From a phage, in the sequence record OZ413487.1: a stretch of 64,000 bases of DNA. The stretch is one strand, 5' to 3'. Position numbers and translations under genes: made by a program. Positions 34,467-56,505 of this stretch are shown here, one piece after another; position 1 is the stretch's first letter, and every line of letters begins with the position of its first letter. The notes under the pieces are model-generated. The model did no database searches and was not told where the DNA came from. It worked only from the letters and a program-made list of their open reading frames with translations.

Positions 34467-36890
34467 ATGAGCATGTGGTCGTTCGACTTTGAGTCATCCG
34501 GTTTGCTGGAAGACCCAGATCTTTATTATCACTGCGGCCTGTTTAAAGAGCTGAATAAGAACCGTTTTATGCTGTTCCTTCCTCTAAATGACCGCACACA
34601 CTACTCCGAGGAGGATATAGAAAAGGCTAAGAACTTCATTCTGGCAAAGAAAACTCTTTATAAAGATTTTGAAGTTCGCATAGCAGATTTTTCAGAGTTG
34701 GAAGGTTGGCTTACAGGAAATTCTGACTGGTCACCAACAGCTTTGAACTGCCATAACTGCTACAGTTATGACTTTATGCTGATGGAAAGATTATCTGGTA
34801 TTCATTTTGATATGTTCCGTGATCCTAAATGTATGGGGACTATCAACGATCACCAGGTTAACCTGTTTGATACGTTGGCGATGAGCCGAATCTTGTGGCC
34901 TGATCGCCCTTTACCAAAAGGTTGTCCGGACTCTGTATTCAACCCGGTTACTAAGAAAATGCAGCCTGTTGGTCCTCACGGCCTTATGGCATGGGGCTAC
35001 GCCCTTGGTAACCAGAAAGTTCAAATTGATGACTGGCGCGATCTTCCGTTGTGGAAGTATGTGGATCGTGTATTCGAGGACGTTATCATCCAGGAGCTGC
35101 TCTGGAAAGAGCTGGTAGCGGAATCAAAAGGTGTATTCTACGGCAAATCTGACATGCAGAACTTTATGTACGATCCGGCCAAAGAGAAGCCGAAAGGGTT
35201 CAAGAAGATCACCTGGAAGAACGCATTACGTCGAGGCATGCTGCAGCACTTCCTGATGGAGCTGCAGGCCCGTCAGGGTGTATACTTCGACATAGATGGA
35301 GCTATTGCTTTACGTGACCGTTGCGATGCGTGGATGAAAGAAATCGCTGATCGTGTTGAACCACAACTACCTTTAAAAGAGCTGTCAATGTCTCAGCGGC
35401 CCAAGTTCCCTGAAAAGCCGTTTAACCAAGACGGGACAATCTCTAATAATGGTTGGAAATGGTTAAAAGATAAGCTTGGCTATCCTGTAGACATGAGTGC
35501 TTTAGAGTTCAAAGCCCTGCCTAAGCGAGCATTTACCTCTACAGGAGATGTCAGCAAGATGGGGATAAAATGGTGTGAAGAGATGGGCTGCAAAGACCCC
35601 GATAAGATGGCTGATTTCTTGAGAGGCTATATTAAGGGCACCTCCACACCACAACCCTTACCTAAAGAGCTGATGGATCAGGCAATAAGTGATCTGCAGC
35701 AGAAGCGAATGCCTGACTGCAAGATACCTATGAAAATCAGCAATCAGGACGACATCAAGCGATACCTAATCAGTGCTGGTTGGCTCCCAACAATGTGGAG
35801 AACTAAAGATGTAACTAAAGACAGCAAGAAGAAAGCTTTACCTGATGCAGATGTTGATGCACGAGTATATGCATATATGGACGAGCTTTTGGAGTCAGAG
35901 TATTGTGACCTAATTATCAACTTCTGGAACAAAACTGATGCTAAGTTCCAGACAACCGTGCACAAGTTCCGAAGCTTTCCTAACTCCGAAAGGATTAAAA
36001 AGGAAGTATTCGGGAAAATACGTAGAAAAGCCAGGGCACTTATTACTTCTCCGCAACTGAAAGATACGTTTGGACACCTATGCCCAAATCTTGAAAAATT
36101 GAACGGAGAGATGGCTAAAGATATCGTCTTGTGGTTATCATTGCGAAACCGCAGATCGGTCCTTGATCCAATCAAGGAGGATAAGGTTGATACTGGTCTT
36201 CTTAATCACCCACGTTTGAAGATTGACCATAAGCTTCCTGCTAAAAGCTCTGGATTAACAAACACTTCCAGACAGAAACACAGTATTTGTGCAAACATGC
36301 CTAAACCATCTCCTAAAGTAGTTATGGGTAAAGAGATGCGTAGTCTGTGGGGTGTTCCTCCAGGATACTTTGAGATCGGTATTGACGGGTCCAACTTAGA
36401 GCAGCTCATCGGGGCTTGGGGTGCCTTTGAGTTCGACAACGGCTTGTATTATGATGTTGTAAGTAACGGAGACGCACACCAAAACAATGCTGAGGCATAT
36501 ACAAAAGTGGCAGGCAGAGAGGTGTCCCGTAACGACGGTAAACCTATCACGTATGGGGTTATGTACGGGGCACAAAAAGATAAAGTTGCAGATATGCTGG
36601 ACATCTCCCCAGAGTTGGGACAAAGGGTAATCGATGCACTCTGGGATGCCAACCCAGGTCTTAAGGGGCGCAAAGAGGATCTGGAGAAATTCTGGGAAGC
36701 AACAGGTAAGAAGTTTATCTACTCTTTTGATGGTCATGCTATCTGGACCCGATCTAAACACTCTTTACTTAATGCATACCAACAAAATGGCGGTGCATCG
36801 TTGTGTGACTTAGTTGGAATACTCATGCACCACCAGATGGTGAAGCGTGGGTGGTACGATGAAGGTGTTCGTCGTATTATTTATTACCAT
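34467..36890 (+). CDS. family A DNA polymerase (T7 gp5-like), exon 1 (ends at the His codon of the HDE motif)
   Basis: 3'-5' exo motifs (FDFESSGL, YSYDFM), HGLMAWGYALG (compare T7 HALEAWGYRLG), polymerase motif A (GIDGSNLEQL), motif B (RNDGKPITYGVMYG) and QQNGGASLCDL. The reading frame hits a stop two codons after ...IIYYH. Confidence 0.8.
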
Positions 36891-37166
36891 AAATAACATT
36901 GTGGCTTCATAGAGTAATCTATGTCGAATAACCTCTTTAACTGCGGGAAGCCTAAACCTTATGGCAAGGTAATCCGCAACGAAGCGCTCAAAAGAGCGAA
37001 CGCTCAGAGGCCATTCCGAAAGGAAGTAGACCAGCAAGTGCGGTCGAAATGGGAGGATTCCTGTGGTTGCTTATCATAGGAATATGAGATGGTCCGATCC
37101 TACGTGAAAACGTATGGCTATGCACGTAATGGTGCGGGGTAGCTTAACGACCTACCTGAACTATTG
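36891..37166 (+). other. intervening sequence in the DNA polymerase gene; candidate group I self-splicing intron
   Basis: 276 nt with no credible ORF. The 5' exon ends in U (CAU), the insert ends in G (...CUAUUG), and a GUGG near its 5' end can pair with exon CCAU to form P1 with a U-G wobble. Joining the flanks restores IIYYH-DEYQLQV. Confidence 0.6.
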
Positions 37167-45718: not shown

Positions 45719-46044
45719 CAGAAATCATCATTTCAACTGCAGGGTATGTGTTCCTGACAATCATTGCACTGACTATTTTGGTGACAGTGTATGGGTTTGT
45801 TATCCTTCCTATCCTTGAGACATTTAGTTTGTGTCGGTGTTGGAGAAAAGCTTACGGTCCACAACCATGGAAGGACTGGCCCCACCTGGTGCGCTTAGCG
45901 TTCTCTTATGCTTACGATCACTCCAGTAGTGCATGCATAACCGGATACCACGCCCACAACTGGAGCTGGGAAGGGTTGAGGAAATGGAATGTTACAAAGA
46001 CCATACCTCTGCGCATGTACAAACCTAAAAACAAAGACAACTGA
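45715..46044 (+). CDS. small membrane protein
   Basis: N-terminal transmembrane segment (YVFLTIIALTILVTVYGFVILPIL); RBS AAGGGGA. Confidence 0.55.
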   Translation: MTEIIISTAGYVFLTIIALTILVTVYGFVILPILETFSLCRCWRKAYGPQPWKDWPHLVRLAFSYAYDHSSSACITGYHAHNWSWEGLRKWNVTKTIPLRMYKPKNKDN

Positions 46045-46086
46045 TACTTGAAAATTCTTGGCATATCAAGTATAAGGGGGATTTCT

Positions 46087-46533
46087 AAAATGGATTTCCT
46101 CCTTTTGATATTTCACCGGGCCGGATATTTTAAAATTCTTAGAAAATCAGAAAATGGATCGAAAACTAAAATGGATTTTTCAGAGTAGGCGCGACAAGCT
46201 GAATAACTCATCCTATCGTTTGCACCATATTCCAGGCCACCATTATAGATTTCCCACACATGCTAACCTCCCTCTACTAGAACTTCCTCCACTTACCCTT
46301 GACCTTCTATGGTAACAATCTAACCGCTATCTTGAAGTTGCTGTGCAGCTTTCCAGGTACTCGATCTACTTTTCATTTCAGGGCTTGGATTTTCTGAAAA
46401 TTTTTCTCGATAAATTTCTCAGTACTCGATCTGTTTTTCGTTTTCTGAATCGGATTTTCTGGAAATCGTTCCGGCTCTCGACCTGAAATTTTTGGGGACG
46501 AAATCGATTTTTCGTTTTCAGAAATGGATTTTT
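46087..46533. repeat. iteron-like array of short direct and inverted repeats (AAAATGGATTTT / GGATTTTCTGAAA, TACTCGATCT)
   Basis: Seven or more copies of the core and its complement within about 450 bp of ORF-free DNA. Confidence 0.6.
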
Positions 46534-46680
46534 AAAATTTCTATATGGGAATATTTTATGGGATACTGTTTTATAGGAAATTGTTACGGAGGGTAATTAG
46601 CGTGCTAATTAAATTTATTAAATGCGAGGAGTTCTCATTTAGAATTTTGAATGATAATCATTCTCGTTTGCAGAATAACG

Positions 46681-46703
46681 GGCAGGCCCGGTGATTGTCT
46701 CCC
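46681..46703 (+). repeat. 23-bp motif GGCAGGCCCGGTGATTGTCTCCC (left copy; a variant lies at 46821-46837)
   Basis: Exact reverse-complement copy at 54121-54143; embedded in a roughly 60-bp imperfect direct repeat (46640-46705 versus 46780-46840). Confidence 0.6.
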
Positions 46704-47060
46704 GGCCCCTACTGCCCCGGCTTGTTATTATAGTATCACACAGGACAAAGAAAGCAAGGATTTTTTGCATAAATTTTTAAATGATAATGATAACCGTTCT
46801 CATTTTATGCAGCGCCCATCCCCGGTGGTTGTCTCCCCCGTCACCGGTGCCTGCCGTCCTTTCGATAGGTATATCGTGCCACCTGGCGGGGCCGCTGTCA
46901 ACACTTTTCAAAAAATTTTTCTAACCTGATGCGCTAACCGCTGCAACCTGGCGGGGTCAGCCTGGCAGGACCTAACTGACCGGGTAGGAGAGAATGAAGG
47001 CTTGTAAACCTGGTGGGCCTATGCTACAGGATAGGTAACAATTGAAGAGGAGGTACAAAA

Positions 47061-47228
47061 ATGAAAGGTAATATGATCCCCCTAGAAAATGTAGCTATTA
47101 ATGACGCTGAGGCTATCGCCCTGGTTGAAAAGGCTATGGCGGGAGCGTTGGAACATAAAGAAGAGTACGAAAAATGGTGGTTAACCTGGCGGGGGCGGCA
47201 GGTGGATTCTATCATAAAAATAATTTAA
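47061..47228 (+). CDS. small protein (55 aa, below the ORF-track threshold)
   Basis: Strong RBS GAAGAGGAGG 7 nt before the ATG. Hand translation MKGNMIPLENVAINDAEAIALVEKAMAGALEHKEEYEKWWLTWRGRQVDSIIKII. Confidence 0.5.
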   Translation: MKGNMIPLENVAINDAEAIALVEKAMAGALEHKEEYEKWWLTWRGRQVDSIIKII

Positions 47229-47236
47229 AATAGTCG

Positions 47237-47265
47237 TTGACAACAAGGTTAATCATGGTATTATT
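47237..47265 (+). promoter_or_regulatory. sigma70-type promoter (TTGACA-N17-ATTATT)
   Basis: -35 hexamer in the same AATAGTCGTTGACAA context seen at 38641. Confidence 0.5.
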
Positions 47266-47315
47266 ACCCTACAAGGTGAACAACACCGCACTAACCAGTA
47301 AAGAGGATAAATTTA

Positions 47316-47512
47316 TGAACGCATACGGGATCAAAGTACGTCGCAACACTCGCCAGGTGGTCACCAATCAAGTGATTTGCCGGGTGGATGTAACCATCAA
47401 CAACGGGCAAGGCCTTTATAAATTTCGTCGCGGTCATAGCTATACCCTGCAACAGCTTAATCGTTGCGCCCTGACAAAAGGTCAGATCAACCATTGGTTT
47501 AATAAAAAATAA
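47316..47512 (+). CDS. small basic protein
   Basis: ATG after AAAGAGGATAAA; the N-terminal extension in the track ORF (47237) overlaps the promoter. Confidence 0.5.
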
Positions 47513-47515
47513 GTA

Positions 47516-47544
47516 TTGACATACAGTCCGACACCAAATACACT
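47516..47544 (+). promoter_or_regulatory. sigma70-type promoter (TTGACA-N17-TACACT)
   Basis: Upstream of the 47577 gene. Confidence 0.55.
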
Positions 47545-47576
47545 AAAAGCACAAAAGACACTAAGAGGATAAAATC

Positions 47577-47975
47577 ATGAAAACCACTACCTTTAATTTT
47601 GATAATGCAGACTTTTCTTTTTCTGATGTCAAGAACTGCCGCCGTGATCGTGGATTTTACAAGGCTTATAATCTGGTGGGCCTGGACGATGACAATAATT
47701 TGCACGAAGTAGCTGAGATCCGGTATTATGCCGCCGCCAGCGGTAACACTAACTACTGCGTTTTTTGGATACACGACAACAAGAACAATAAGTACGGTTA
47801 TACTGGTGGCAAGGCTAGCGGTCACGGTTATGATAAAGCCAACGCTGCACTTGAAAGCGCATTAAATGCCATGGGAATCACTGCCGACGGCTGGATCTAT
47901 GAAGAAGAGTTTTTGGCGGCACTTGCTGCCCACCTGGGCTATAAAAAGCACATTGTAACATGCGCCCACGAATAA
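47577..47975 (+). CDS. hypothetical protein
   Basis: 132-aa ORF with RBS AAGAGGA. Confidence 0.55.
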   Translation: MKTTTFNFDNADFSFSDVKNCRRDRGFYKAYNLVGLDDDNNLHEVAEIRYYAAASGNTNYCVFWIHDNKNNKYGYTGGKASGHGYDKANAALESALNAMGITADGWIYEEEFLAALAAHLGYKKHIVTCAHE

Positions 47976-47986
47976 AAAAAAAATTA

Positions 47987-48014
47987 TTGACACGCTGCAA
48001 AATTCAAGTAAACT
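47987..48014 (+). promoter_or_regulatory. sigma70-type promoter followed by 5' UTR hairpin GGCGGGAATGTTTCCCGCC (48025-48043)
   Basis: TTGACA at 47987, then a stable hairpin between the -10 and the RBS. Confidence 0.5.
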
Positions 48015-48062
48015 AGGCACAAAAGGCGGGAATGTTTCCCGCCAACACGAAGGAAAAAGATC

Positions 48063-48458
48063 ATGAATAAAAACGTACGCCGCATCATGAACGAACTGGC
48101 AAACGATGAAAAAATTATTGATATGCATTTGGTCAACATTTGCCGCCGTTGTGTAACATATAACAACCGCGCCGCAAAAGCGCGTGAGATGAACGCAAAA
48201 GGCACCTTAAAGCCCTTTCAGGTGGTTGTAAAATCTATGACCAGTGCAGCAGGCCAGGCGCATGACCACAACAACGGGAGCACTAATATTGATCCATCTT
48301 ACGTAATGAAACGGATCCGGACTTGCAAGAATAAAGAGCAGGTGTATAACGTCATAGATTGGCTGGACTCCCTGGGTGACGTGGTTTACAATAGGTTTTC
48401 TGCAGCTATTGAAATTCAGTTAGACAGGTTGGACGGGAAAGTACTGAAAACTTACTGA
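48063..48458 (+). CDS. hypothetical protein
   Basis: 131-aa ORF. Confidence 0.55.
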   Translation: MNKNVRRIMNELANDEKIIDMHLVNICRRCVTYNNRAAKAREMNAKGTLKPFQVVVKSMTSAAGQAHDHNNGSTNIDPSYVMKRIRTCKNKEQVYNVIDWLDSLGDVVYNRFSAAIEIQLDRLDGKVLKTY

Positions 48459-48460
48459 GT

Positions 48461-48505
48461 TTATTTTTAGATGGCCTTGACTCCAGGGCCATCAATAAAG
48501 TAAAC
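48461..48505 (+). repeat. 45-bp intergenic element TTATTTTTAGATGGCCTTGACTCCAGGGCCATCAATAAAGTAAAC (copy 1)
   Basis: Nearly identical copies at 49089-49133 and 52804-52848 and a variant at 49425-49470, each immediately after a stop codon. Contains the palindrome GATGGCC ... GGCCATC. Confidence 0.7.
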
Positions 48506-48538
48506 TAATCCCAGTTAAGCGAAAAAGGAGGCTTGAAG

Positions 48539-48658
48539 ATGAGCACTACACGCCAGCACACAAAGGTAACTATTATCGTTTGCATCATTGGTTATATCCT
48601 GGCGCAAATGTTGATGGGTAGCGCTAACGGTGTCGCAAAATTTTTCTTAAACTTTTAA
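48539..48658 (+). CDS. small hydrophobic peptide (39 aa)
   Basis: RBS AAAAAGGAGG; hand translation MSTTRQHTKVTIIVCIIGYILAQMLMGSANGVAKFFLNF, with a single transmembrane-like segment. Confidence 0.4.
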   Translation: MSTTRQHTKVTIIVCIIGYILAQMLMGSANGVAKFFLNF

Positions 48659-48686
48659 TTGACAAGCTAACTTAGATCAGTATACT
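48659..48686 (+). promoter_or_regulatory. sigma70-type promoter (TTGACA-N16-TATACT)
   Basis: Followed by a small 5' UTR hairpin and RBS AAAGGAGAAAACAT. Confidence 0.55.
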
Positions 48687-48735
48687 AAACACATAAACGG
48701 GAAAACTTCCCAGAACACCAAAAGGAGAAAACATT

Positions 48736-49086
48736 ATGAATACTTCCATCACTATGACCGCCGAAGAAAAAGCCCTGCAGATCGCCGCTCTGAAAAAACA
48801 GATTGCAGAACTTGAAGACAAGATCGACAATTTTGAAATCGACGAAGACAAATACGACGATAAATATGATGAATGGTTGGACGAGATCTACGGCGAAATT
48901 ATGATCGGAAACATTTCTTTTCTTCCGTCGCGTATCCTCAAGGAGCTAGATCCTATCGCTTACCGCTGCGGATTTAGCGACTACATCGACAGCCTGGATA
49001 TTGAGGACGATGAAGAATACCAGGAATTGCAGACAGAGCTTGAAGAAGTGAAAGAAGAGCTTGCAGAACTGGAAGAAAACGAGTAA
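48736..49086 (+). CDS. highly acidic coiled-coil protein
   Basis: 116 aa, rich in D/E with heptad character (IAELEDKIDNFEIDEDKYDDKYDEW ... EELQTELEEVKEELAELEENE). Confidence 0.6.
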   Translation: MNTSITMTAEEKALQIAALKKQIAELEDKIDNFEIDEDKYDDKYDEWLDEIYGEIMIGNISFLPSRILKELDPIAYRCGFSDYIDSLDIEDDEEYQELQTELEEVKEELAELEENE

Positions 49087-49088
49087 GA

Positions 49089-49133
49089 TTATTTTTAGAT
49101 GGCCTTGACTCCAGGGCCATCAATAAAGTAAAC
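49089..49133 (+). repeat. 45-bp intergenic element (copy 2)
   Basis: Identical to 48461-48505. Confidence 0.7.
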
Positions 49134-49175
49134 TTTATACTGTTAACACTGAACTAATGCATAGGAGTTAAAACC

Positions 49176-49421
49176 ATGGCAGCACTAATCACCAAATATT
49201 ATGCCCCTACCAACACCAAAAGCGCCCGTATCATGGTAAAAGGCTTCGGACGTAAAAAGGTTTACACTTGGGATTATTCCCTAGACATGGAAGACAACTA
49301 CACCAACGCGATGACCGATTTTATTAATGAACTAAATAAGCAGATCTTAACCAATTATAAGGTGACCGACATCGCCTATGTTGGGGAAGGTGGGATCTGT
49401 TTTGTCGGTATTGTCAAATAA
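49176..49421 (+). CDS. hypothetical protein
   Basis: 81-aa ORF with RBS ATAGGAG. Confidence 0.5.
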   Translation: MAALITKYYAPTNTKSARIMVKGFGRKKVYTWDYSLDMEDNYTNAMTDFINELNKQILTNYKVTDIAYVGEGGICFVGIVK

Positions 49422-49424
49422 GCT

Positions 49425-49470
49425 GTTTTTTCGGTGGTCCTGGTGGCAGGGCCATCTATAAAGATAGTTT
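49425..49470 (+). repeat. variant of the 45-bp intergenic element
   Basis: Shares GGCAGGGCCATC-TATAAAG-TA with the other copies. Confidence 0.45.
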
Positions 49471-49496
49471 ATTAACACCATGAAAGGAGAAAGTAC

Positions 49497-49850
49497 ATGA
49501 TCAGCGGGGCTAGTTTTATTATTGGCGCTATTGCTACAGCTTTAATTGTAAACAAGATCCAGGATAAAAAGGAAAGAGGAAGTACCGCCCTTGCAGAATA
49601 TCCATTTTGGACATTCAACGATAACGAAGATTATATTATAAAGTATAAAAATAAAGAAGGTGACCAAGTAACACCGCGACCGATCCCGGCTTACAAGATG
49701 CAGGAAACACTATACCGCTTGGAGGCAGGGGGCGCAAAAATTGTGGACTTTTGGGGATACGATCACACAGATCAGGAAGTTATAAAGCGCCGTATCCGGG
49801 CTATTCAGGCCAATATTGAAGTTAGCAAGGGGGGAATATATGAAGATTAA
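49497..49850 (+). CDS. hypothetical protein with N-terminal transmembrane segment
   Basis: RBS GAAAGGAGAAAG; N-terminus MISGASFIIGAIATALIV. Confidence 0.55.
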   Translation: MISGASFIIGAIATALIVNKIQDKKERGSTALAEYPFWTFNDNEDYIIKYKNKEGDQVTPRPIPAYKMQETLYRLEAGGAKIVDFWGYDHTDQEVIKRRIRAIQANIEVSKGGIYED

Positions 49851-50037
49851 TTTTGAGAAAATTGTAAAGCGATCTCATGATTCCGAAGAGCTGCCGGAAC
49901 GCCGCCAGCGTAACAATAAACTGAATAAGCCAAAAAGATTTGGGAAGATCTGGCGGAATCATTATGATCGTAAATTGCCGGGCCTCCTTTTGGAACGTGA
50001 ACGGCAGGCGGAACGATACCGCCACAAAGGCAACTAA
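49840..50037 (+). CDS. small basic protein
   Basis: ATG at 49840 after AAGGGGGGAA; terminator downstream. Confidence 0.45.
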   Translation: MKINFEKIVKRSHDSEELPERRQRNNKLNKPKRFGKIWRNHYDRKLPGLLLERERQAERYRHKGN

Positions 50038-50043
50038 CAACCA

Positions 50044-50074
50044 ACGCCCCGCCATCGTGCGGGGCTTTTTATTT
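50044..50074 (+). terminator. rho-independent terminator
   Basis: GCCCCGC ... GCGGGGC hairpin plus TTTTTATTT. Confidence 0.75.
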
Positions 50075-50195
50075 CTACCCTACGAATAGCGCCCCTGGTT
50101 GGCCCCACAACGCCCTAAAAGCCCCCTACCCATGCAATCCCATTTCTTAACCTGAAAACATCGTCAAAGGCTGTTTTAAAGCGTTAAAAATATTG

Positions 50196-50224
50196 TTGAC
50201 ATCTAAAATATTCTAGATATACTA
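50196..50224 (+). promoter_or_regulatory. sigma70-type promoter (TTGACA-N17-ATACTA)
   Basis: Upstream of the 50259 gene with RBS AAGGAG. Confidence 0.5.
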
Positions 50225-50258
50225 ATCACATCAAAGCGAGAAGTAAGGAGTAAACGCC

Positions 50259-50519
50259 ATGCGTAAATTAAAAAATTTTGATAAAGTTGATATTGTCCTG
50301 AATAATTTTTACTACTGCAATAACAAGGCCGTTTGGTGGCGTGATAGTTCCACCGATAAAGTCAAGGCGCGCTTTCTCCAGGGGCACTGGCAAGGCCGCC
50401 CAGTGATTAAAATCATGGGGCAATTGGTAGCGTTTAAAAATTGCCGCCGTGTTGATGACGTTGAAGAGATTTTAAACATTTTGCGCCACAATAATTTAAA
50501 AAATAGTGTTGACAAGTAA
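50259..50519 (+). CDS. hypothetical protein
   Basis: 86-aa ORF. Confidence 0.55.
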   Translation: MRKLKNFDKVDIVLNNFYYCNNKAVWWRDSSTDKVKARFLQGHWQGRPVIKIMGQLVAFKNCRRVDDVEEILNILRHNNLKNSVDK

Positions 50520-50536
50520 ATCTCAATAAGTATAAT
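50509..50536 (+). promoter_or_regulatory. consensus sigma70 promoter (TTGACA-N16-TATAAT) followed by 5' UTR hairpin GGCGGGAAAACTTCCCGCC (50547-50565)
   Basis: Overlaps the 3' end of the upstream gene; the hairpin is 8 bp with a 3-nt loop. Confidence 0.6.
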
Positions 50537-50593
50537 TAAAAACACAGGCGGGAAAACTTCCCGCCACTAACAAAGAAAACAGGAGAAAATATC

Positions 50594-51217
50594 ATGACCA
50601 CCGTTAACATTACCACAGGTTACAATTTATCTTTCGACGTGCTGACCGACGAACAAAAAGAAAAAGCCGTGGAAATGGTCCGCGAAAGAGAAGAACACAG
50701 CGGGGATAACTTTTTTGCAGAAAGTGTAATTGAGTACTATAAAGAATATGTTTTTCCAGAGTACGGCCTTGAAGATACCGATGTACATTGGTCAGGCTTT
50801 TGGTGCCAGGGTGACGGCGCGTCAATCAGTGCGGAAAACGTGGATTTAGAAAAATTCTTGCGTAAAGTCAAGTCTCTGACTAAATTCCGCTCAATTCGTC
50901 ACTTGTTCGGCACAATGCACGATGGCGAGTTATCCGCAAGTGTTGAGCGTGATCCATATAGCCGCTATAGTCACGAAAACACTGTAAACGGATACATCGA
51001 TACTACATGGCTAGACCTGACCACCAAACAAGAAAACAAAGTGGAAGATCTGGAAGAGCTGATCACCGAGACGGTACGGGAGTTATCCCGCAAGGTTTAC
51101 GTAGACCTGGAGGAGGCCTATCTTGAACAATTCACCGCCGAAAACTTGATCGGCCTTATCGAGGCCAATGATTGGCGGTTTGATGTCGATGAACACGGTA
51201 AGATGACTTTTTCATAA
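50594..51217 (+). CDS. hypothetical acidic protein (207 aa)
   Basis: RBS AACAGGAGAAAA; no recognised motif. Confidence 0.6.
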   Translation: MTTVNITTGYNLSFDVLTDEQKEKAVEMVREREEHSGDNFFAESVIEYYKEYVFPEYGLEDTDVHWSGFWCQGDGASISAENVDLEKFLRKVKSLTKFRSIRHLFGTMHDGELSASVERDPYSRYSHENTVNGYIDTTWLDLTTKQENKVEDLEELITETVRELSRKVYVDLEEAYLEQFTAENLIGLIEANDWRFDVDEHGKMTFS

Positions 51218-51224
51218 ATAAAGT

Positions 51225-51252
51225 GTTGCAATAACCTAAAAACCTGCTATAT
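51225..51252 (+). promoter_or_regulatory. sigma70-type promoter (TTGCAA-N16-TATATT) followed by 5' UTR hairpin (51264-51282)
   Basis: Same cassette architecture as at 50509. Confidence 0.45.
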
Positions 51253-51305
51253 TAAAACTCAAGGGGCAAGACGTTTGCCCCACACAAAACAAAGAGGTAA
51301 ACATT

Positions 51306-51686
51306 ATGAAAAACACTACTAAAGCTATTGACACCGTTATGTTTAACCTGGTTACATTCCGTGAAGATATGAAAGATCTTCCACGTGAAACAGTGTGCGA
51401 TCACATTGAAAACTATCGCAAACTAATCAAAGAGTTGCCTTTAAAACGTGACCAGTATGCGGCTAACGCTATGCTTAACGCCATGATCAAAAAGATGATT
51501 CAGTGTGATTTAACTCTGGCCTATGATTATGCAGGTGGTCGTTTTGCAGTATACAATCAGCCCGTGCCTGGTATGAGCACCACCGAAGAATTGCACGCGT
51601 TAAATCTGAAACAAGATGTATGGGATAACATGCCCCGCGTGGTGGTGTGGGCAGAAAGCGGAAAGATTTACGGCGATAATTTTTAA
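51306..51686 (+). CDS. hypothetical protein
   Basis: 126-aa ORF with RBS AAAGAGGTAAACATT. Confidence 0.55.
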   Translation: MKNTTKAIDTVMFNLVTFREDMKDLPRETVCDHIENYRKLIKELPLKRDQYAANAMLNAMIKKMIQCDLTLAYDYAGGRFAVYNQPVPGMSTTEELHALNLKQDVWDNMPRVVVWAESGKIYGDNF

Positions 51687-51750
51687 TCAGGTAACAGGCG
51701 GCATATTTGCCGCCTTATTGTTAAACAGAACTGCAAAAGAGGTACATAGA

Positions 51751-52122
51751 ATGGAATTTATTATTTTGGCTGTAGTAGTTGCCTTGTTCAACGCCTGGAT
51801 CGCTGGCAAGATAGGTAGATCCGCTTTTCTATGGTTTGTTATATCTATTTTCCTGGGAGTGGTTGCAACTATTGTATTGGTTATCCTTGCAATTGTTGAC
51901 AAGGGCGATAATAGAAAGGGTAAAGTGTTTTCCGACCTGTATGACGCACAAACGTTTGTCAACGCCTATTATAGTGATCTTCCAGTCTCCCTACGCTGCA
52001 GCCTGGCACAACAGGTTTTTGATGAGGCTAAAACCAGAGACCAAGCCCATGAGATATGTTTAACTGAAGCGGATCGCCTATTTGAGAGGAATAGAAAATA
52101 TGTGGACCAGCCGTTTAAATAA
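51751..52122 (+). CDS. membrane protein (two predicted transmembrane helices)
   Basis: ATG at 51751 after AAAAGAGG; hydrophobic helices FIILAVVVALFNAWIAG and LWFVISIFLGVVATIVLVILAIV. Confidence 0.55.
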   Translation: MEFIILAVVVALFNAWIAGKIGRSAFLWFVISIFLGVVATIVLVILAIVDKGDNRKGKVFSDLYDAQTFVNAYYSDLPVSLRCSLAQQVFDEAKTRDQAHEICLTEADRLFERNRKYVDQPFK

Positions 52123-52321
52123 CGCCACGTTAATTAATCCCTTTAGTGAAGATTTGAAGCCAGCCGCCTGGCGTGACGGATTCAATAACGAACGCTTTAT
52201 TTTCAGGCCTGATCTTGAGGAATTTTATAACAATGGATCGAACAACAGCGGAGATAATTTTTCTTGTGGTGTGCGTGGTGATAGGACTCCTGGGGGCCAT
52301 TGTAAACCACGTCACTACTAA
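52100..52321 (+). CDS. hypothetical protein (uncertain)
   Basis: ATG after GAGAGGAATAG; low-complexity N/G/S-rich. Overlaps an alternative-frame small membrane ORF at 52233..52358. Confidence 0.3.
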   Translation: MWTSRLNNATLINPFSEDLKPAAWRDGFNNERFIFRPDLEEFYNNGSNNSGDNFSCGVRGDRTPGGHCKPRHY

Positions 52322-52341
52322 CAGGAGGGAAGGGGGAGACG

Positions 52342-52461
52342 ATGACAACCAAAGATAAGCCATGCGCTGATAAGGTGCGCCGTGTTATGGTATGGCTTGA
52401 GATTATCGCCCTTGAAATATTGTTAGGCGTAGGGATGTACTTTATCGCTGTAAGTAACTAA
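52342..52461 (+). CDS. small membrane peptide (39 aa, uncertain)
   Basis: GGGGGAG just upstream; hydrophobic core VMVWLEIIALEILLGVGMYFIAV; terminator immediately downstream. Confidence 0.35.
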   Translation: MTTKDKPCADKVRRVMVWLEIIALEILLGVGMYFIAVSN

Positions 52462-52463
52462 GA

Positions 52464-52494
52464 GCGGCCCCCGATCATGGGGGCCTATCTTTTA
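52464..52494 (+). terminator. rho-independent terminator
   Basis: GGCCCCC-GATCAT-GGGGGCC hairpin plus TATCTTTT. Confidence 0.7.
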
Positions 52495-52515
52495 AAAAAT
52501 TTTTCTTCCGGGGTG

Positions 52516-52544
52516 TTGCAATCCGGTCCGGAATGTGGATAATA
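52516..52544 (+). promoter_or_regulatory. sigma70-type promoter (TTGCAA-N17-ATAATA)
   Basis: Followed by a 5' UTR hairpin and RBS AGAAAGGAGAAA. Confidence 0.5.
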
Positions 52545-52599
52545 ACAATCAACGGGGAGCTAATCCCCACCACCACAAAAACCAGAAAGGAGAAACAAA

Positions 52600-52800
52600 A
52601 TGAGCAACAATATCCGCGTTATTAACTTCAAAAAAGAAGAAAAAATTGCCGTGCTGATTGACGGTCAAGAAATCTTCAAGGGCGACTATGAAGATCATCA
52701 AACGGCGATTAGTATCACTCGCGTGATTGGTTATCATAATTTCTACCCCCAAGGCGCTGAGGCAGCAGTTAAACGAATCAAAGAGATTGTAGGCCTGTAA
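52600..52800 (+). CDS. hypothetical protein
   Basis: 66-aa ORF. Confidence 0.55.
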   Translation: MSNNIRVINFKKEEKIAVLIDGQEIFKGDYEDHQTAISITRVIGYHNFYPQGAEAAVKRIKEIVGL

Positions 52801-52803
52801 AAT

Positions 52804-52848
52804 TTATTTTTAGATGGCCTTGACTTCAGGGCCATCGATAAAGTAAAT
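52804..52848 (+). repeat. 45-bp intergenic element (copy 3)
   Basis: Two mismatches relative to copy 1. Confidence 0.7.
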
Positions 52849-52893
52849 TTAAACCCTGTTAAAATACCACGCAGTTAACAAGGAGTGATAGAC

Positions 52894-53193
52894 ATGTTTA
52901 TCCAGGCTAATAATCTTTATTTCTTTGATGGTCAGATCGTAGATGGTGTGGAAGTGGAGATCACCGGGTGCCCTGGCGGTCAGGCTATGACTTTTCGGAA
53001 TAATGCCTTTGATGATTCTCATATCGTTATAAGAATGGAAGTTACGAAGCTGGACGACAAGAAAACACTTATTGACTATTCTGTGAAAGATCATCCAGAC
53101 TACCGCATGATCCATGGTGATTTGTGCATTGTTGACCGTGACAAGGTGGGCGGCATTGTGATCGCTATTGTGAACGATGTTTTCTCAAACTAA
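52894..53193 (+). CDS. hypothetical protein
   Basis: ATG at 52894 after AAGGAG. Confidence 0.55.
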   Translation: MFIQANNLYFFDGQIVDGVEVEITGCPGGQAMTFRNNAFDDSHIVIRMEVTKLDDKKTLIDYSVKDHPDYRMIHGDLCIVDRDKVGGIVIAIVNDVFSN

Positions 53194-53210
53194 TTTCAGC
53201 AGGCGATTTT

Positions 53211-53561
53211 ATGAAAGTCAAACTATATTACCTTAATGAGCTTAACCCCCTTGCCCAGGTCCGCGCCCTAGCTAATACCTTGATTTGTGAGAAATCTGTA
53301 TATTGTGTTGAGCTTAACGCCATGCGTGAACGTCTCAAAGGTGGTTACTTTGACATCCATGCTGCAATCAACGGCCTGAATATGGAATTTATACGCTTAC
53401 GTAACAGCCGCCGGAATCTGGCAAGAATGGAACAAGATCCGGCCCACCTTCGTAAACTGGTTATTGAAAATCATCTGATGTTTAATGCCGAGGGGGATTA
53501 TTACCATTTTCACCGCAAACGCTGGTACCGTGGCGGCAATACAGGCAAGAATGCAAAATAA
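53211..53561 (+). CDS. hypothetical basic protein
   Basis: 116-aa ORF; two hairpins and a terminator downstream. Confidence 0.55.
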   Translation: MKVKLYYLNELNPLAQVRALANTLICEKSVYCVELNAMRERLKGGYFDIHAAINGLNMEFIRLRNSRRNLARMEQDPAHLRKLVIENHLMFNAEGDYYHFHRKRWYRGGNTGKNAK

Positions 53562-53596
53562 GGCCCCTAGCAGGGCCTGCAGCAATATAATCACAT

Positions 53597-53631
53597 AAAG
53601 GCCATGCGGTTGCATGGCCTTTATTATTTTG
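53597..53631 (+). terminator. rho-independent terminator
   Basis: GGCCATGC-GGTT-GCATGGCC hairpin plus TTTATTATTTT. Confidence 0.75.
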
Positions 53632-53678
53632 GCGTTACAACGGCATACGGGGCGCTTAAAAAATTTTTAAAGAAGTAC

Positions 53679-53706
53679 TTGCATCATTCCCGACAATATG
53701 GATAAT
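53679..53706 (+). promoter_or_regulatory. sigma70-type promoter (TTGCAT-N16-GATAAT)
   Basis: Followed by hairpin GGGGGAGGCCCCC and an RBS; downstream coding is ambiguous. Confidence 0.45.
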
Positions 53707-54120
53707 AAGAGTTGTCGAGGGGGAGGCCCCCAATCGTTGACCAGATAGATAGGAGTTAAAATCATGGCTATTGTTACCGCTGGCTATCTTCAAAGATGCG
53801 GAAGCAAAACAACGCCGGATCTCAATACATGAGATCATCAACCTTAACGCTGGAGGCACACCATACCGCCCAGGACCTGGCCGTGAGATGGACAATACGC
53901 TAGCGATCCTGAAGATACGCCGTAAACGGTCCTCCCTTACTCTGGACTCATTACACACAATGCAGCCTCCGTTCCAGGTGACCGGGAAACGGATCGCCAG
54001 GTCCTGGACAAAGGCCAATGATCGGACCGTATAAATAAAAGTGTTTTGGTACTGATTTTGGGGTTGACTTGTTCGGCCCCTTTTGCTATTCTTATTAAAC
54101 GGGCGGCACTTGGGAACAGG

Positions 54121-54143
54121 GGGAGACAATCACCGGGCCTGCC
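54121..54143 (-). repeat. 23-bp motif, inverted copy of 46681-46703
   Basis: Exact reverse complement (GGGAGACAATCACCGGGCCTGCC). Confidence 0.6.
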
Positions 54144-54168
54144 TGTCATATAAGAACTATAAAAACCG

Positions 54169-54197
54169 TTGACATCTGCCATGGGGTGGGGTAACAT
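54169..54197 (+). promoter_or_regulatory. sigma70-type promoter (TTGACA-N17-TAACAT)
   Basis: Upstream of the 54252 gene. Confidence 0.5.
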
Positions 54198-54251
54198 TTA
54201 TCTTGAAGGGGCAAAAGTGCCCACACAACAACCAAGAGAGAGGAAAACACT

Positions 54252-54524
54252 ATGTCAAACTGGATTAATCAAGAAGTCGAATCACGTTTTAATGCTATTT
54301 GGGATCTCATCGAAAAAGAAGACGGCACATCAAGCCCCTACCTCAACAATTTGGAATTCCATTTTGTGGAAGCGATGAACGCAGAACATGATCACGAAGG
54401 TGGCGCGGATGAGTTCGCTAAAGGTTATGGCTTTAACAATGCCAACGAAATGATCGAGGCGGTAGTACTCCAGGCTGAGGAAGATTATCAACTAAAAACG
54501 CTTGAATTCTGCCGCCGCAAGTAA
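54252..54524 (+). CDS. hypothetical acidic protein
   Basis: 90-aa ORF with RBS AGAGAGGAAAACAC. Confidence 0.55.
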   Translation: MSNWINQEVESRFNAIWDLIEKEDGTSSPYLNNLEFHFVEAMNAEHDHEGGADEFAKGYGFNNANEMIEAVVLQAEEDYQLKTLEFCRRK

Positions 54525-54584
54525 TAAGATAATGACACGGGCCAAAAGGCCCACTAATCAGAACCGCACAAAGAGGTAAACATC

Positions 54585-54848
54585 ATGAAACGTCTTGATC
54601 AGCTCAAATTAGTTCAATATATGGCTTATCGTGTTCTTGAAGTCCAGAAAGGTAGCAAAAAAGAGGTTTGCGAGAAAGCTTATAAGATCTTCACTCGCAA
54701 AAAAGATGACTGGATGCTACGCCAGACTAAAAAGGCTGACATCTTGGGGTACCTGGAAGAAGAGATCCGCCTTGAAGAGCAAGAAGAGATCCGCCGTAGT
54801 GAGGCAGATTATCAGGCAGCTTGGGAAAACTGGATGAGCAACAAATAA
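54585..54848 (+). CDS. hypothetical protein
   Basis: 87-aa ORF with RBS AAAGAGGTAAACAT; terminator downstream. Confidence 0.55.
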   Translation: MKRLDQLKLVQYMAYRVLEVQKGSKKEVCEKAYKIFTRKKDDWMLRQTKKADILGYLEEEIRLEEQEEIRRSEADYQAAWENWMSNK

Positions 54849-55859: not shown

Positions 55860-56135
55860 TGTCATGTTGTGTCAGTTAGGTCACATTATGTCAGACAAGT
55901 TTTTCTCCTCTTTGTCAAGTGCTGCATGAAAAATTTACAAGCTTGTATGGTAGCATTTTTGCGGCCCTGTTTACATTCAGTAATGTATGTATAATCCTTG
56001 TTGTGTGGGCGTTTAGACGTCTAGACGGTTGGAAGTCCACAGGTCAATATCTAATCTATCGGCTGCTAACTATATCCCACACAAATAGTAAGAAATATGA
56101 TTGTTATATGCGTAAACTGTAACTCATGTTATCAA

Positions 56136-56505
56136 TCCCTGTATGGATCGCCAGTGGTGCGCATAATAGGTATTATGTTAAATTGCCCGTAATGATAACA
56201 GTTCTCACAATGATAGGTATTCTCATTCATCCACACAAAATAGGTTGCAAATGTTGTGCCACTGTGTGAACGGCCTGGCCTATTAATTTCTCTCACTGCC
56301 TCGATATTTGAGAATTGTTATCCCTGTATGGATCGCCAGTGGTGCGCATAATAGGTATTATGTTAAATTGCCCGTAATGATAACAGTTCTCACAATGATA
56401 GGTATTCTCATTCATCCACACAAAATAGGTTGCAAATGTTGTGCCACTGTGTGAACGGCCTGGCCTATTAATTTCTCTCACTGCCTCGATATTTGAGAAT
56501 TGTTA
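56136..56505. repeat. perfect tandem direct repeat, 2 x 185 bp
   Basis: Copy 1 (56136-56320) and copy 2 (56321-56505) appear identical base for base when read by eye. Confidence 0.8.

Follow-up and report, generated by a model that had tools for sequence, protein, structure and literature searches.

The two arms of an inverted repeat in the genome of a Vequintavirus (rV5-like phage) belong to two facing copies of an ancient non-coding control element, which is shared by rV5-like phages and their relatives. We refer to the two copies as L (left) and R (right). The window, i.e. the whole stretch of DNA that we analysed, comprises 64,000 nucleotides of sequence record OZ413487.1. Our best explanation, which we hold tentatively, is that L and R are convergent, factor-dependent promoter or boundary modules without a -35 hexamer that would delimit an early gene block. 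No earlier description of the element was found in the literature searched.

The sequence GGCAGGCCCGGTGATTGTCTCCC at 46681-46703 on the plus strand recurs as its exact reverse complement at 54121-54143 on the minus strand, as the first-pass annotation had claimed, and none of the dinucleotide-preserving shuffles (0/100) contained such a 23-mer pair. The 23-nt repeat grows to 29 nt at 93% identity (46675-46703 / 54121-54149). The degenerate third copy that had been noticed near 46821 was recovered as well. This copy, M, spans 46821-46839, is 95% complementary to 54119-54137 and sits within a conserved non-coding block downstream of L. It has local hairpin arms (CCGGTG at 46822-46827 and CACCGG at 46842-46847), and in most relatives R corresponds to M over 45 nt in inverted orientation. 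Exactly three occurrences of the 16-mer CCGGTGRTTGTCTCCC were counted in the window (46688+, 46822+, 54121-). A search with an nhmmer core profile gave two strong matches and one weak match per genome, and no others, in the window, OR062525 and CR3; further copies of GGCAGGCCCGGTGATTGTCTCCC were found neither in the window nor in the closest complete genome. Scattered extra copies, for which the first-pass annotation had advised a search, were thus not seen: there are only three copies per genome, and L, M and R are all intergenic. The features of the two units and their surroundings are as follows.

46347-46532, no strand assigned: three iteron-like repeats of 65-74 nt with GATC and A6T5 tracts, adjoining the L unit on its left within a shared 1-kb non-coding gap
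46620-46668, no strand assigned: upstream of L, two Fur-box-like palindromes at 46620-46640 (degenerate) and 46648-46668 (with TGATAATCATTCTCG, 1 mismatch to TGATAATCATTCTCA)
46644-46735, plus strand: whole L unit, 70-88% identical to phages of other genera with non-aligning flanks (multi-genus alignment)
46681-46703, plus strand: left arm, exact match, core of the L unit (RGGCA-N4-YGGTGWTTGTCTCC), kept in 18 L-type units from at least six genera
46723-46734, plus strand: -10-type element of L, TGtTATTAT, overlapping TATAGT, 25 nt after TTGTCT
46780-46802, no strand assigned: Fur-box-like palindromes upstream of M (AATGATAATGATAACCGTTCTCA), from repeat and motif search
46821-46839, plus strand: third copy M, weak (nhmmer E=0.07), direct relative to L
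46873-46901, minus strand: leftward sigma-70-type promoter TTGACA-N17-CACGAT, conserved in the multi-genus alignment
54060-54080, plus strand: terminator hairpin closing the array directly before R, conserved jointly with R across genera
54085-54165, minus strand: whole R unit, inverted paralogue of L (cross-genus comparison)
54088-54093, minus strand: -10-like hexamer AAGAAT of R, exactly 30 nt after TTGTCT
54121-54143, minus strand: right arm, core of the R unit, exact reverse complement of the left arm
54169-54197, plus strand: sigma-70 promoter TTGACA-17-TAACAT, 26 nt right of R and assigned to the next small gene (promoter scan)

Both units contain a nearly invariant, asymmetric GC-rich element of ~33 nt (GAATRRC-RGGCA-N4-YGGTGWTTGTCTCC), followed by 20-30 variable GC-rich bases and then a -10-type hexamer. 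The L unit is an oriented non-coding stretch of ~90 nt, in which Fur-box-like palindromes precede this element and ~20 variable GC-rich bases separate it from the hexamer. In the window it consists of a palindrome, GAATAAC, the core, the GC-rich variable segment and the -10-type element, and the GC-rich segment is enclosed by ATAAC (46675-46679) and GTTAT (46724-46728). The L unit is kept across the Vequintavirinae and Stephanstirmvirinae, and the non-coding stretch around it is better conserved than the neighbouring genes. Among L units the -10-type hexamer lies 25-30 nt from TTGTCT; it is a perfect TATAAT in six units and TGn-extended in seven. Certrevirus and Mydovirus have the perfect TATAAT 25-26 nt past TTGTCT, and KE23 and Hena1 have TGnGATAAT. 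Downstream of L, the conserved non-coding block of ~190 nt is followed by the gene array.

R is a separate second unit, orthologous to the R units of CR3, GEC_vB_MG, DU_PP_IV, FBKp34 and Vequintavirus relatives. A distinct R orthologue is kept in Certrevirus, Seunavirus, Vequintavirus and one Stephanstirmvirinae phage. In the window, R includes GTTCTTAT as a half-palindrome, ATGAC, the core, a segment rich in GC and the AAGAAT hexamer. All 11 R units, from several genera, have an nAnnAT hexamer 30 nt past TTGTCT (31 in CR3), which is too distant from the adjoining terminator hairpin for the U-tract of that hairpin to explain it. In the R hexamers the initial T of the -10 consensus is missing. 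All genes around R lie antisense to it, and downstream of R there is no gene on the minus strand. The promoter at 54169-54197 is P168 as predicted in rV5 (PMC3606486, Table S4).

Fur-box-like palindromes accompany L, M and distant R units, and one to four copies lie upstream of L in all genera. The Fur 7-1-7 motif is TGATAAT-N-ATTATCA. Compared with the general Fur consensus, and not with a database model, TGATAATCATTCTCG at 46652 has one mismatch and TGATAACCGTTCTCA at 46788 has two; by this consensus, a 19-bp box or 7-1-7 match overlapping promoter elements was found. The palindromes AATGAKAATCATTCTCATT resemble Fur-repressed promoters of Enterobacteria (e.g. aerobactin iucA) in that they match the 7-1-7 motif with one or two mismatches, and in that one palindrome at L overlaps a promoter-like spacer. 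In contrast to those promoters, the putative Fur sites described here occur in virulent phages, in arrays of one to four beside a GC-rich element.

L and R lie on opposite strands, in convergent orientation and 7.4-10.7 kb apart, in 11 of the 11 genomes where both were located. They are 7.4 kb apart in the window and ~9.7 kb in close relatives, and the shorter spacing is peculiar to this genome because the window lacks ~2.2 kb at 53777-53784. CR3 has the same layout, with L, 27 small plus-strand genes, R, three more genes and then a strand switch. Within relatives, L and R differ by 1-5 bases and do not co-vary; therefore, their exact 23-nt identity is particular to this genome. According to the first-pass annotation, the pair flanks the entire block of small genes, but two promoter-equipped small genes (54252-54848) lie right of R, and other small genes lie left of L.

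The exact inverted repeat around a hypervariable gene block would suit sites at which the segment is inverted or excised by crossover, or the two ends of a composite mobile element, as the first-pass annotation had considered. This reading is close to refuted. In 111 related genomes the sequence runs uninterrupted across the left junction, and an inverted arrangement was found neither among the five relatives aligned in full, which are all collinear, nor among the 11 genomes with both units mapped. L and R units occupy orthologous positions in different genera, and the 1-5 differences between them in relatives also argue against recombination sites. The annotation of the closest complete genome (OR062525) lists no recombinase, integrase, invertase or transposase, and the ORFs adjoining L and R contain no recombinase or transposase domain. 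No target-site duplication is seen: ...AATAACG and TGTCATA..., the outer flanks, do not form direct repeats. Gains and losses of genes within the block map instead to 49-nt promoter/stem-loop repeats, located at 48458, 49086, 49421 and 52801 and coinciding with a gene-sized indel, and to microhomology. A Hin/Gin/Cin-type inversion system was rejected, as inverted repeats are present but a recombinase gene is not and isolates have a single orientation only. A transposon or MITE with terminal inverted repeats was rejected on the constant position across genera and the missing target-site duplication. Invertible segments with gix, cix and hix sites occur in Mu (G), P1 (C) and Salmonella (H). They resemble the present arrangement of short inverted repeats around a segment of a few kb in a phage genome, but here there is neither an invertase gene nor an isolate of opposite orientation, and the repeats have not stayed identical. 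The proposed comparison with related phages thus revealed conserved units and no structural inversion. The regulatory or shared-operator role suggested for the repeats is more in line with our results, since the copies are intergenic, near promoter-like signals and part of a deeply conserved cis-element, but they belong to oriented, composite, orthologous units and not to simple operators.

The sigma-70 scan (-35 and -10 hexamers 16-18 bp apart) lists neither the L nor the R unit, and only the -10-type hexamer is present, TGn-extended at L. It is for this reason that we read the units as putative factor-dependent promoters without a -35 hexamer. A protein bound to the conserved 33-nt element would replace the -35 contact. 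Because the conservation reaches so far, this protein would probably come from the host or be a phage factor that is itself highly conserved, and Fur, the iron repressor of the host, may modulate it. Transcription from L would run rightward in sense, through the ~190-nt non-coding block and on into the array, and that from R leftward in antisense, from the far end of the block; the two units would jointly mark and co-regulate the block boundaries. The anatomy, copy number, orientation and conservation of the units and the lack of rearrangement are established, and promoter activity, binding factor and control by Fur are inferred from sequence. The few intergenic copies, the cross-genus identity of L, the orthology of R, the constant convergent layout, the hexamers at fixed distance and the Fur-like palindromes count for promoters. 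Several observations count against them. The bidirectional-terminator allele of relatives puts a terminator just past the R start, which would leave an RNA of ~35 nt only, there is no minus-strand gene for R to transcribe, and its hexamers are incomplete. The distance from core to -10 varies among L units from 25 to 30 nt. Moreover, the GC-rich segment can form a hairpin, with complementarity above that of shuffles, which fits an RNA or a terminator equally well.

Activator-dependent promoters without a -35 hexamer include Pm/Mor and late/C of Mu, those of Ogr-Delta in P2/P4, and the MotA middle promoters of T4. These promoters share with L and R a good -10, the lack of a -35, a conserved upstream element at a roughly fixed distance, and few copies per genome. 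In L and R, however, this element is a 33-nt asymmetric GC-rich sequence spanning ~-36 to -66 instead of a dyad or a short box. It exists in just two full copies, which are convergent and associated with Fur-box-like palindromes, and its activator is putative.

L and R could also be polar transcription barriers or insulators, in which a GC-rich hairpin with an A/U-rich tract, or a roadblock protein, halts RNA polymerase in one direction; as an inverted pair they would shield the early block from read-through at both ends. We consider this unlikely. The mirrored orientation at the two ends of the block is consistent with it, and R lies directly behind a canonical terminator, like a tandem stop. 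The conserved 5' segment and the variable 3' segment are more complementary to each other than in shuffles (sum 129 vs 110 +/- 4.9), but not in most single units, and the significance of this excess is overstated because the sequences tested are related. The closing 5-bp helix ATRRC/GYYAT exchanges A:T for G:C at two of its five pairs, with 7-8 A.C cells in addition. Yet the fold energies of single units mostly fall within 2 sd of shuffles, with z-scores mostly from -2.6 to +1 and from -2.0 to -3.9 in three Vequintavirus R units. L, M and R are absent from the 21 sites of the terminator scan, their tails are A/U-mixed and not U-tracts, and 33 nearly invariant bases are more than an intrinsic terminator requires. 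An intrinsic (Rho-independent) terminator as such was rejected on that scan and on the hairpin without a following U-tract. Transcription might instead start at the core, from a Fur-repressed promoter (TTGAAT-N18-CAGAAT at L), and yield a small RNA, which we find improbable. Here the conserved 5' end UGAUUGUCUCC would serve as an anti-Shine-Dalgarno seed, and R would yield an RNA of ~95 nt ending at a bidirectional terminator. Strong conservation of the 5' end is typical for seed regions and is seen here. The Fur-box-like palindrome of L fills the spacer of a plausible sigma-70 promoter positioned for a start at GGGCAGG, and the R cores of Gotham-type phages, GEC_vB_MG and FBKp34 are followed on their own strand by an A/U-rich stretch and then by a hairpin and a U-run. 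However, in other genera the R units carry CTGAAT, lack a -35 hexamer and have their Fur box 55 nt off, R of the window has no U-tail on its own strand, the fold z-scores are weak, and no ribosome-binding site of the phage genome was found to be complementary. Nor is there an Rfam family match: Rfam 15 gave no gathering-score match in the window, and at E<=10 the matches in 46000-47100 were at chance level, whereas 53900-54300 had no match.

A function at the DNA level appears quite doubtful to us. The 1-kb gap with its GATC-rich iterons, convergent promoters and L would then be a replication origin, and L and R would serve as signals for priming or as polar barriers to forks; alternatively, the terminal segment that enters first would end at L, similar to the injection stop of T5. 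In all genera examined, L has GATC-rich iterons and A/T tracts immediately to its left, with analogous GATC-rich repeats at the same place in phiTE, Seu621 and Hena1, and a conserved convergent promoter pair lies between L and the array; both features favour this reading. The spacer of the 46873-46901 promoter is a hairpin that co-varies between genera (pair 40-57 is GC in seven sequences and AU in five), followed by a T-rich run on the plus strand. The 459-bp terminal repeat of Gotham puts R ~2.5 kb and L ~11.3 kb (8%) from the genome end, and the rV5 authors failed to locate a replication origin (PMC3606486), which also count in its favour. Against it, R has no iterons, the core is by eye unlike Ter, DnaA-box, Chi and KOPS, and the ~275-aa proteins encoded beside the gap in other genera have no known domain. 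Tus-Ter fork barriers and the first-step-transfer stop of T5 are similar in that asymmetric mirrored sites delimit a domain, and L lies ~7-8% from the physical end beside a repeat-rich gap. However, L and R have no sequence similarity to Ter, and the terminal repeat is only ~460 bp here versus 10 kb in T5.

The proposed convergent promoter modules can be compared with two further systems. Lambda nutL/nutR and HK022 putL/putR also comprise two conserved copies in opposite orientation, with hairpin potential and beside early promoters. These elements act on host RNA polymerase. In contrast to L and R, which converge with R in antisense, they are located in sense transcripts and point away from a central control region; L and R further have neither boxA/boxB similarity nor an Rfam match. 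Promoter/stem-loop (PeSL) cassettes were reportedly described by Arbiol et al. in 2010 in T4-type hyperplastic regions. The bracketed block is likewise a hypervariable array of small genes, each with a promoter and a stem-loop, and its 49-nt repeats look like cassettes, whereas L and R are unique boundary elements, conserved across genera and mutually inverted.

These results correct a tempting misreading of the segment as an invertible or mobile cassette. The element is nearly unchanged across at least two subfamilies and forms a facing pair around a hypervariable early block in all 11 genomes where both copies were located. Since rV5-like and phAPEC8-like phages are widely used as candidates for therapy and biocontrol, the element, the Fur-box-like sites, the GATC-rich iterons and the conserved block offer handles on the timing of early expression. 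They also raise the question whether host iron status feeds into the programme of a virulent phage. A speculative extension, to which we give little credence, is that the pair and its host-type Fur boxes form a domain-boundary device that ties the exit from the host-takeover programme to host iron status. If so, it would delimit the terminal, first-expressed and possibly first-entering ~7-8% of the genome, and would represent an iron-sensing polar insulator or antisense shut-off in virulent phages, common to two subfamilies.

The first-pass annotation had described an exact 23-bp inverted repeat on either side of an array of small genes. This description was correct: the 23-mer GGCAGGCCCGGTGATTGTCTCCC lies at 46681-46703 on the plus strand (left arm, L) and its exact reverse complement at 54121-54143 (right arm, R), and no such pair arose in 100 dinucleotide-preserving shuffles. 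The complementarity between L and R reaches 29 nt at 93%. The weak third copy (M, 46821-46839, plus strand) is also real, with the 16-mer CCGGTGRTTGTCTCCC found three times in the window; no further copy of it appeared elsewhere in the 64 kb when up to three mismatches were allowed. A search for more copies across the genome had been proposed as well, and in the complete genome of OR062525 the core was present only three times, at sites homologous to L, M and R. Likewise, an nhmmer profile made from 31 units gave two strong matches and one weak match, and no others, in each of the window, OR062525, an IMG/VR relative and CR3. Hence, the core is not a generic scattered motif.

Scanning IMG/VR with the 16-mer core returned more than 120 loci, nearly all of which were a chance match within a lambdoid prophage coding sequence (...GLPVIVSQYVG...) and were discarded; only L044, L057, L065, L092 and L107 were relevant. 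Bacterial genomes scanned for GGCA-N4-YGGTGWTTGTCTC yielded just scattered matches in unrelated taxa, which is the chance level when 15 fixed bases are sought in 596 Gb and therefore uninformative, and E. coli genomes searched with the L unit gave no match. Core-like sequences were also seen in intergenic DNA of two viral contigs: CCGGTGATTGTCTCCC in L092 (IMGVR_UViG_3300027123_000194, 461-476), and ATGACAGGCAGGGGTGGTGTTTGTCT, with Fur-box-like palindromes before it, in L147 (1047-1072). Given these two contigs, the range of the element may be wider than two subfamilies.

The region shares 91-97% identity with rV5-like phages of Vequintavirus (vB_EcoM_10C2_SA_NWU OR062525, isim and Gotham, with ~130 others), and the window is collinear through both arms with isim, Gotham and two IMG/VR relatives. 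In 111 phage records, an 801-nt query with L at its centre was covered contiguously. L and R were convergent and on opposite strands in all 11 genomes where both units were located (OR062525, isim, C12, D#, rV5_ev168, phiWec196, HeinrichReichert, 366V, SYGMH1, GEC_vB_MG, DU_PP_IV). The arms themselves differ by 0 nt in the window, 1 nt in OR062525 and in a 137-kb IMG contig, 2 nt in isim and in Gotham, and 5 nt in CR3, and the changes are unmatched between arms (e.g. GGCC in L and CCCC in R of Gotham). This lack of co-variation argues against a functional long-range RNA duplex between L and R, which we rejected. The annotation of OR062525 contains no integrase, invertase or transposase, and Pfam and PHROGs detected no DNA-binding or recombinase domain in the proteins flanking L and R. 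With a contiguous L junction, a constant convergent order, diverged arms and no annotated recombinase, the earlier suggestion of recombination sites did not hold up and is highly improbable.

Some observations on annotation were made alongside. The isim homologue of the 87-aa ORF at 54585-54848 is named 'DNA translocase FtsK'; Pfam found no FtsK or other DNA-binding domain, and the name looks unfounded. A group I intron (36881-37116; Rfam RF00028, 64.7 bits) directly follows the region homologous to the annotated DNA polymerase ORF of OR062525, and its position suggests that the polymerase gene is split.

L is situated within a ~1-kb geneless gap (46050-47060) that, compared with one relative of ~85% overall identity, shows stronger conservation than the genes on either side. 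A sensitive search recovered the ~60-160 nt around L at 70-88% identity in phages of other genera, including Certrevirus (phiTE, POP15, F5M2A, CR3), Seunavirus (KE23, GEC_vB_MG), Mydovirus (Seu621), Henunavirus (Hena1), ABPH49 and Stephanstirmvirinae (phAPEC8, phiWec181), always inside a non-coding gap of 0.8-1.3 kb. The aligned L unit, i.e. the whole oriented non-coding unit around the core, starts with one to four palindromes AATGAKAATCATTCTCATT, and continues with GAATRRC-RGGCA-N4-YGGTGWTTGTCTCC, in which N4 is variable yet always G/C-rich. Its 3' part consists of ~20 variable GC-rich bases and a -10-type hexamer 25-30 nt past TTGTCT; the hexamer matches TATAAT perfectly in six units, and seven units (five Vequintavirus, KE23, Hena1) have a TGn extension before it. 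L and R units both contain GGTGWTTGTCTCC. The 92-aa ORF at 46651-46929, which spans L and M, was rejected as a coding sequence: L and M are in different frames, and relatives carry 2-nt or other non-triplet indels, which exclude annotated or possible ORFs across the element.

Signals near L, M and R, and in the array
46347-46532: three iteron-like repeats of 65-74 nt, immediately left of L, with GATC and A6T5 (GAAAAATTTTT) tracts
46620-46668 and 46780-46802: Fur-box-like palindromes (TGATAAT-N-ATTCTCA), in tandem, upstream of L and M
46901 to 46873, minus strand: conserved promoter TTGACA-N17-(C/T)AtAAT, its 17-nt spacer being the co-varying hairpin
48458-48506, 49086-49134, 49421-49469 and 52801-52849: 49-nt cassette, four copies, 67-100% identical
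56193-56225 and 56378-56410: Fur-box-like palindromes near the genome end

The Fur 7-1-7 motif is TGATAAT-N-ATTATCA. The palindromes near L and M fit this consensus with one or two mismatches, and every related genus has kept Fur-box-like palindromes. A site downstream of Rz in the Stx1 phage VT1-Sakai (L153 401-430) agrees at 29 of 30 nt with one palindrome of CR3 and its flank.

When the CR3 R unit was used as query, R-type units were found in Cronobacter, Enterobacter, Pectobacterium, Salmonella and Klebsiella phages and in more than 90 Vequintavirus records, where the best match was the R position, not L. R is more than a casual copy of L. R units share the core of L and add a -10-like hexamer (CAGAAT, GATAAT, GAGAAT, AAGAAT or AAGTAT) exactly 30 nt past TTGTCT (31 in CR3) in 11 of 11 units. 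Upstream of R in other genera are a Fur-box-like palindrome and a second core-like motif. The phiTE pseudo-ToxI locus is elsewhere in that phage, at 106.7 kb (PMC3475682), and was set aside.

In Vequintavirus, M is inside a conserved non-coding block, between the -10 of L and a hairpin with co-variation between genera, after which the plus strand has a T-rich run. R corresponds to M, not to L, in most relatives, as an inverted copy of 45 nt. With the -10 of L and the minus-strand promoter, the gap holds convergent promoter-like signals ~190 nt apart. The conserved ~190-nt block without an ORF (46738-46925) runs from the rightward -10 element to the hairpin with its T-run and is overlapped by the conserved leftward TTGACA-N17-CATAAT promoter; it may encode a sense/antisense non-coding RNA pair common to two phage subfamilies. 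Fold energies of the M-containing block are just 1.3-1.5 sd below shuffles.

Variation in gene content maps away from L and R. The 49-nt cassettes form a stem-loop (GATGGCC...GGCCATC) with a -35-like TTGACT in the loop, then a -10-like TAAACT, and resemble the PeSL promoter/stem-loop cassettes of T4-type phages. Relative L123 lacks 48507-49085, precisely the gene that separates the first two copies. The window lacks ~2.2 kb (~8 small genes) present in isim, with an 8-nt microhomology CCGCTGGC at the junction (53777-53784); at 53764-54034 one gene's first seven codons run out of frame into the interior of a second gene, a remnant just upstream of R. Because of this deletion the L-R spacing is 7.4 kb here, not ~9.7 kb. 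Spacings elsewhere are 7.9 kb in DU_PP_IV, ~8 kb in GEC_vB_MG, 8.3 kb in SYGMH1, 9.7 kb in OR062525, 10.5 kb in a 152-kb IMG contig and 10.7 kb in CR3. The full layout recurs in CR3: L (80271, +) within a non-coding gap, 27 small plus-strand genes, R at 90949 (-), three further small genes and then a strand switch. Together, the R orthologues, the layout of CR3 and these distances imply that the facing pair is an ancient conserved feature of the group.

The strongest signal is the ~33-nt asymmetric sequence, nearly invariant across phages with diverged proteins and flanks; a -10-type hexamer lies at a fixed distance from it, and a -35 hexamer is absent. Promoters that need a bound factor (Mu Mor/C, P2 Ogr, T4 MotA) have the same anatomy, a -10 without a -35. 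On this likeness, the most likely mechanism, which we favour tentatively, is that L and R may be factor-dependent promoters. Transcription from L would run in sense through the non-coding block and on into the array, that from R would run antisense from the far end, and one factor would serve both, possibly modulated by Fur. The main weakness is that R has no evident product, and in some relatives a start at R would meet a terminator at once. R is antisense to its neighbouring genes in every annotated case, and directly before it is a plus-strand terminator hairpin in two forms, each common to several genera. That the units are polar transcription barriers insulating the block is unlikely.

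Small RNAs starting at the core are a somewhat poorer candidate. For most single units, neither strand folds better than its shuffles; the minority that do, chiefly L units of Certrevirus and three R units of Vequintavirus, have z-scores of -2 to -3.9. Complementarity between the conserved 5' and variable 3' segments, summed over 20 mutually related units, was 129 versus 110 +/- 4.9 in shuffles, and most single-unit tests were not significant. The 5-bp closing helix ATRRC/GYYAT has A:T to G:C exchanges at two positions, and also 7-8 A.C cells, which become G.U pairs only if the opposite strand is read. These results make a hairpin possible, on one strand or the other, not proven. Rfam has no matching family, and the complementary ribosome-binding-site target GGAGACAAWCACC matched only L, M and R themselves in the phage genome. 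DNA sites for replication or entry are less probable again. The iteron-like repeats left of L are a candidate replication origin, with further AAAATGGATTTT motifs at 46060-46190 and comparable GATC-rich repeats (GGGTCTCGATC) in the same non-coding gap of phiTE, Seu621 and Hena1. Going by the annotated 459-bp terminal repeat of Gotham, the physical genome end is ~2.5 kb past R and ~11.3 kb (8%) past L. By eye, the core did not resemble a sigma-54 or sigma-32 promoter, Ter, Chi, KOPS, DnaA, IHF, CRP or mar box. Where Gotham has its terminal repeat, the window has an exact 185-nt tandem duplication (56135-56319 / 56320-56504), which could reflect either misassembly at the genome ends or a genuine feature of the terminus.

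In the rV5 genome paper the only entry is the sigma-70 promoter P168 next to the element, and no origin could be defined (PMC3606486). In the literature we searched, neither the element and its facing arrangement nor Fur boxes in these phages were described. Over all readings, L and R very probably represent a cis-acting boundary or regulatory element that has been conserved, rather than sites of recombination. We provisionally group them with regulated phage promoter or boundary elements.
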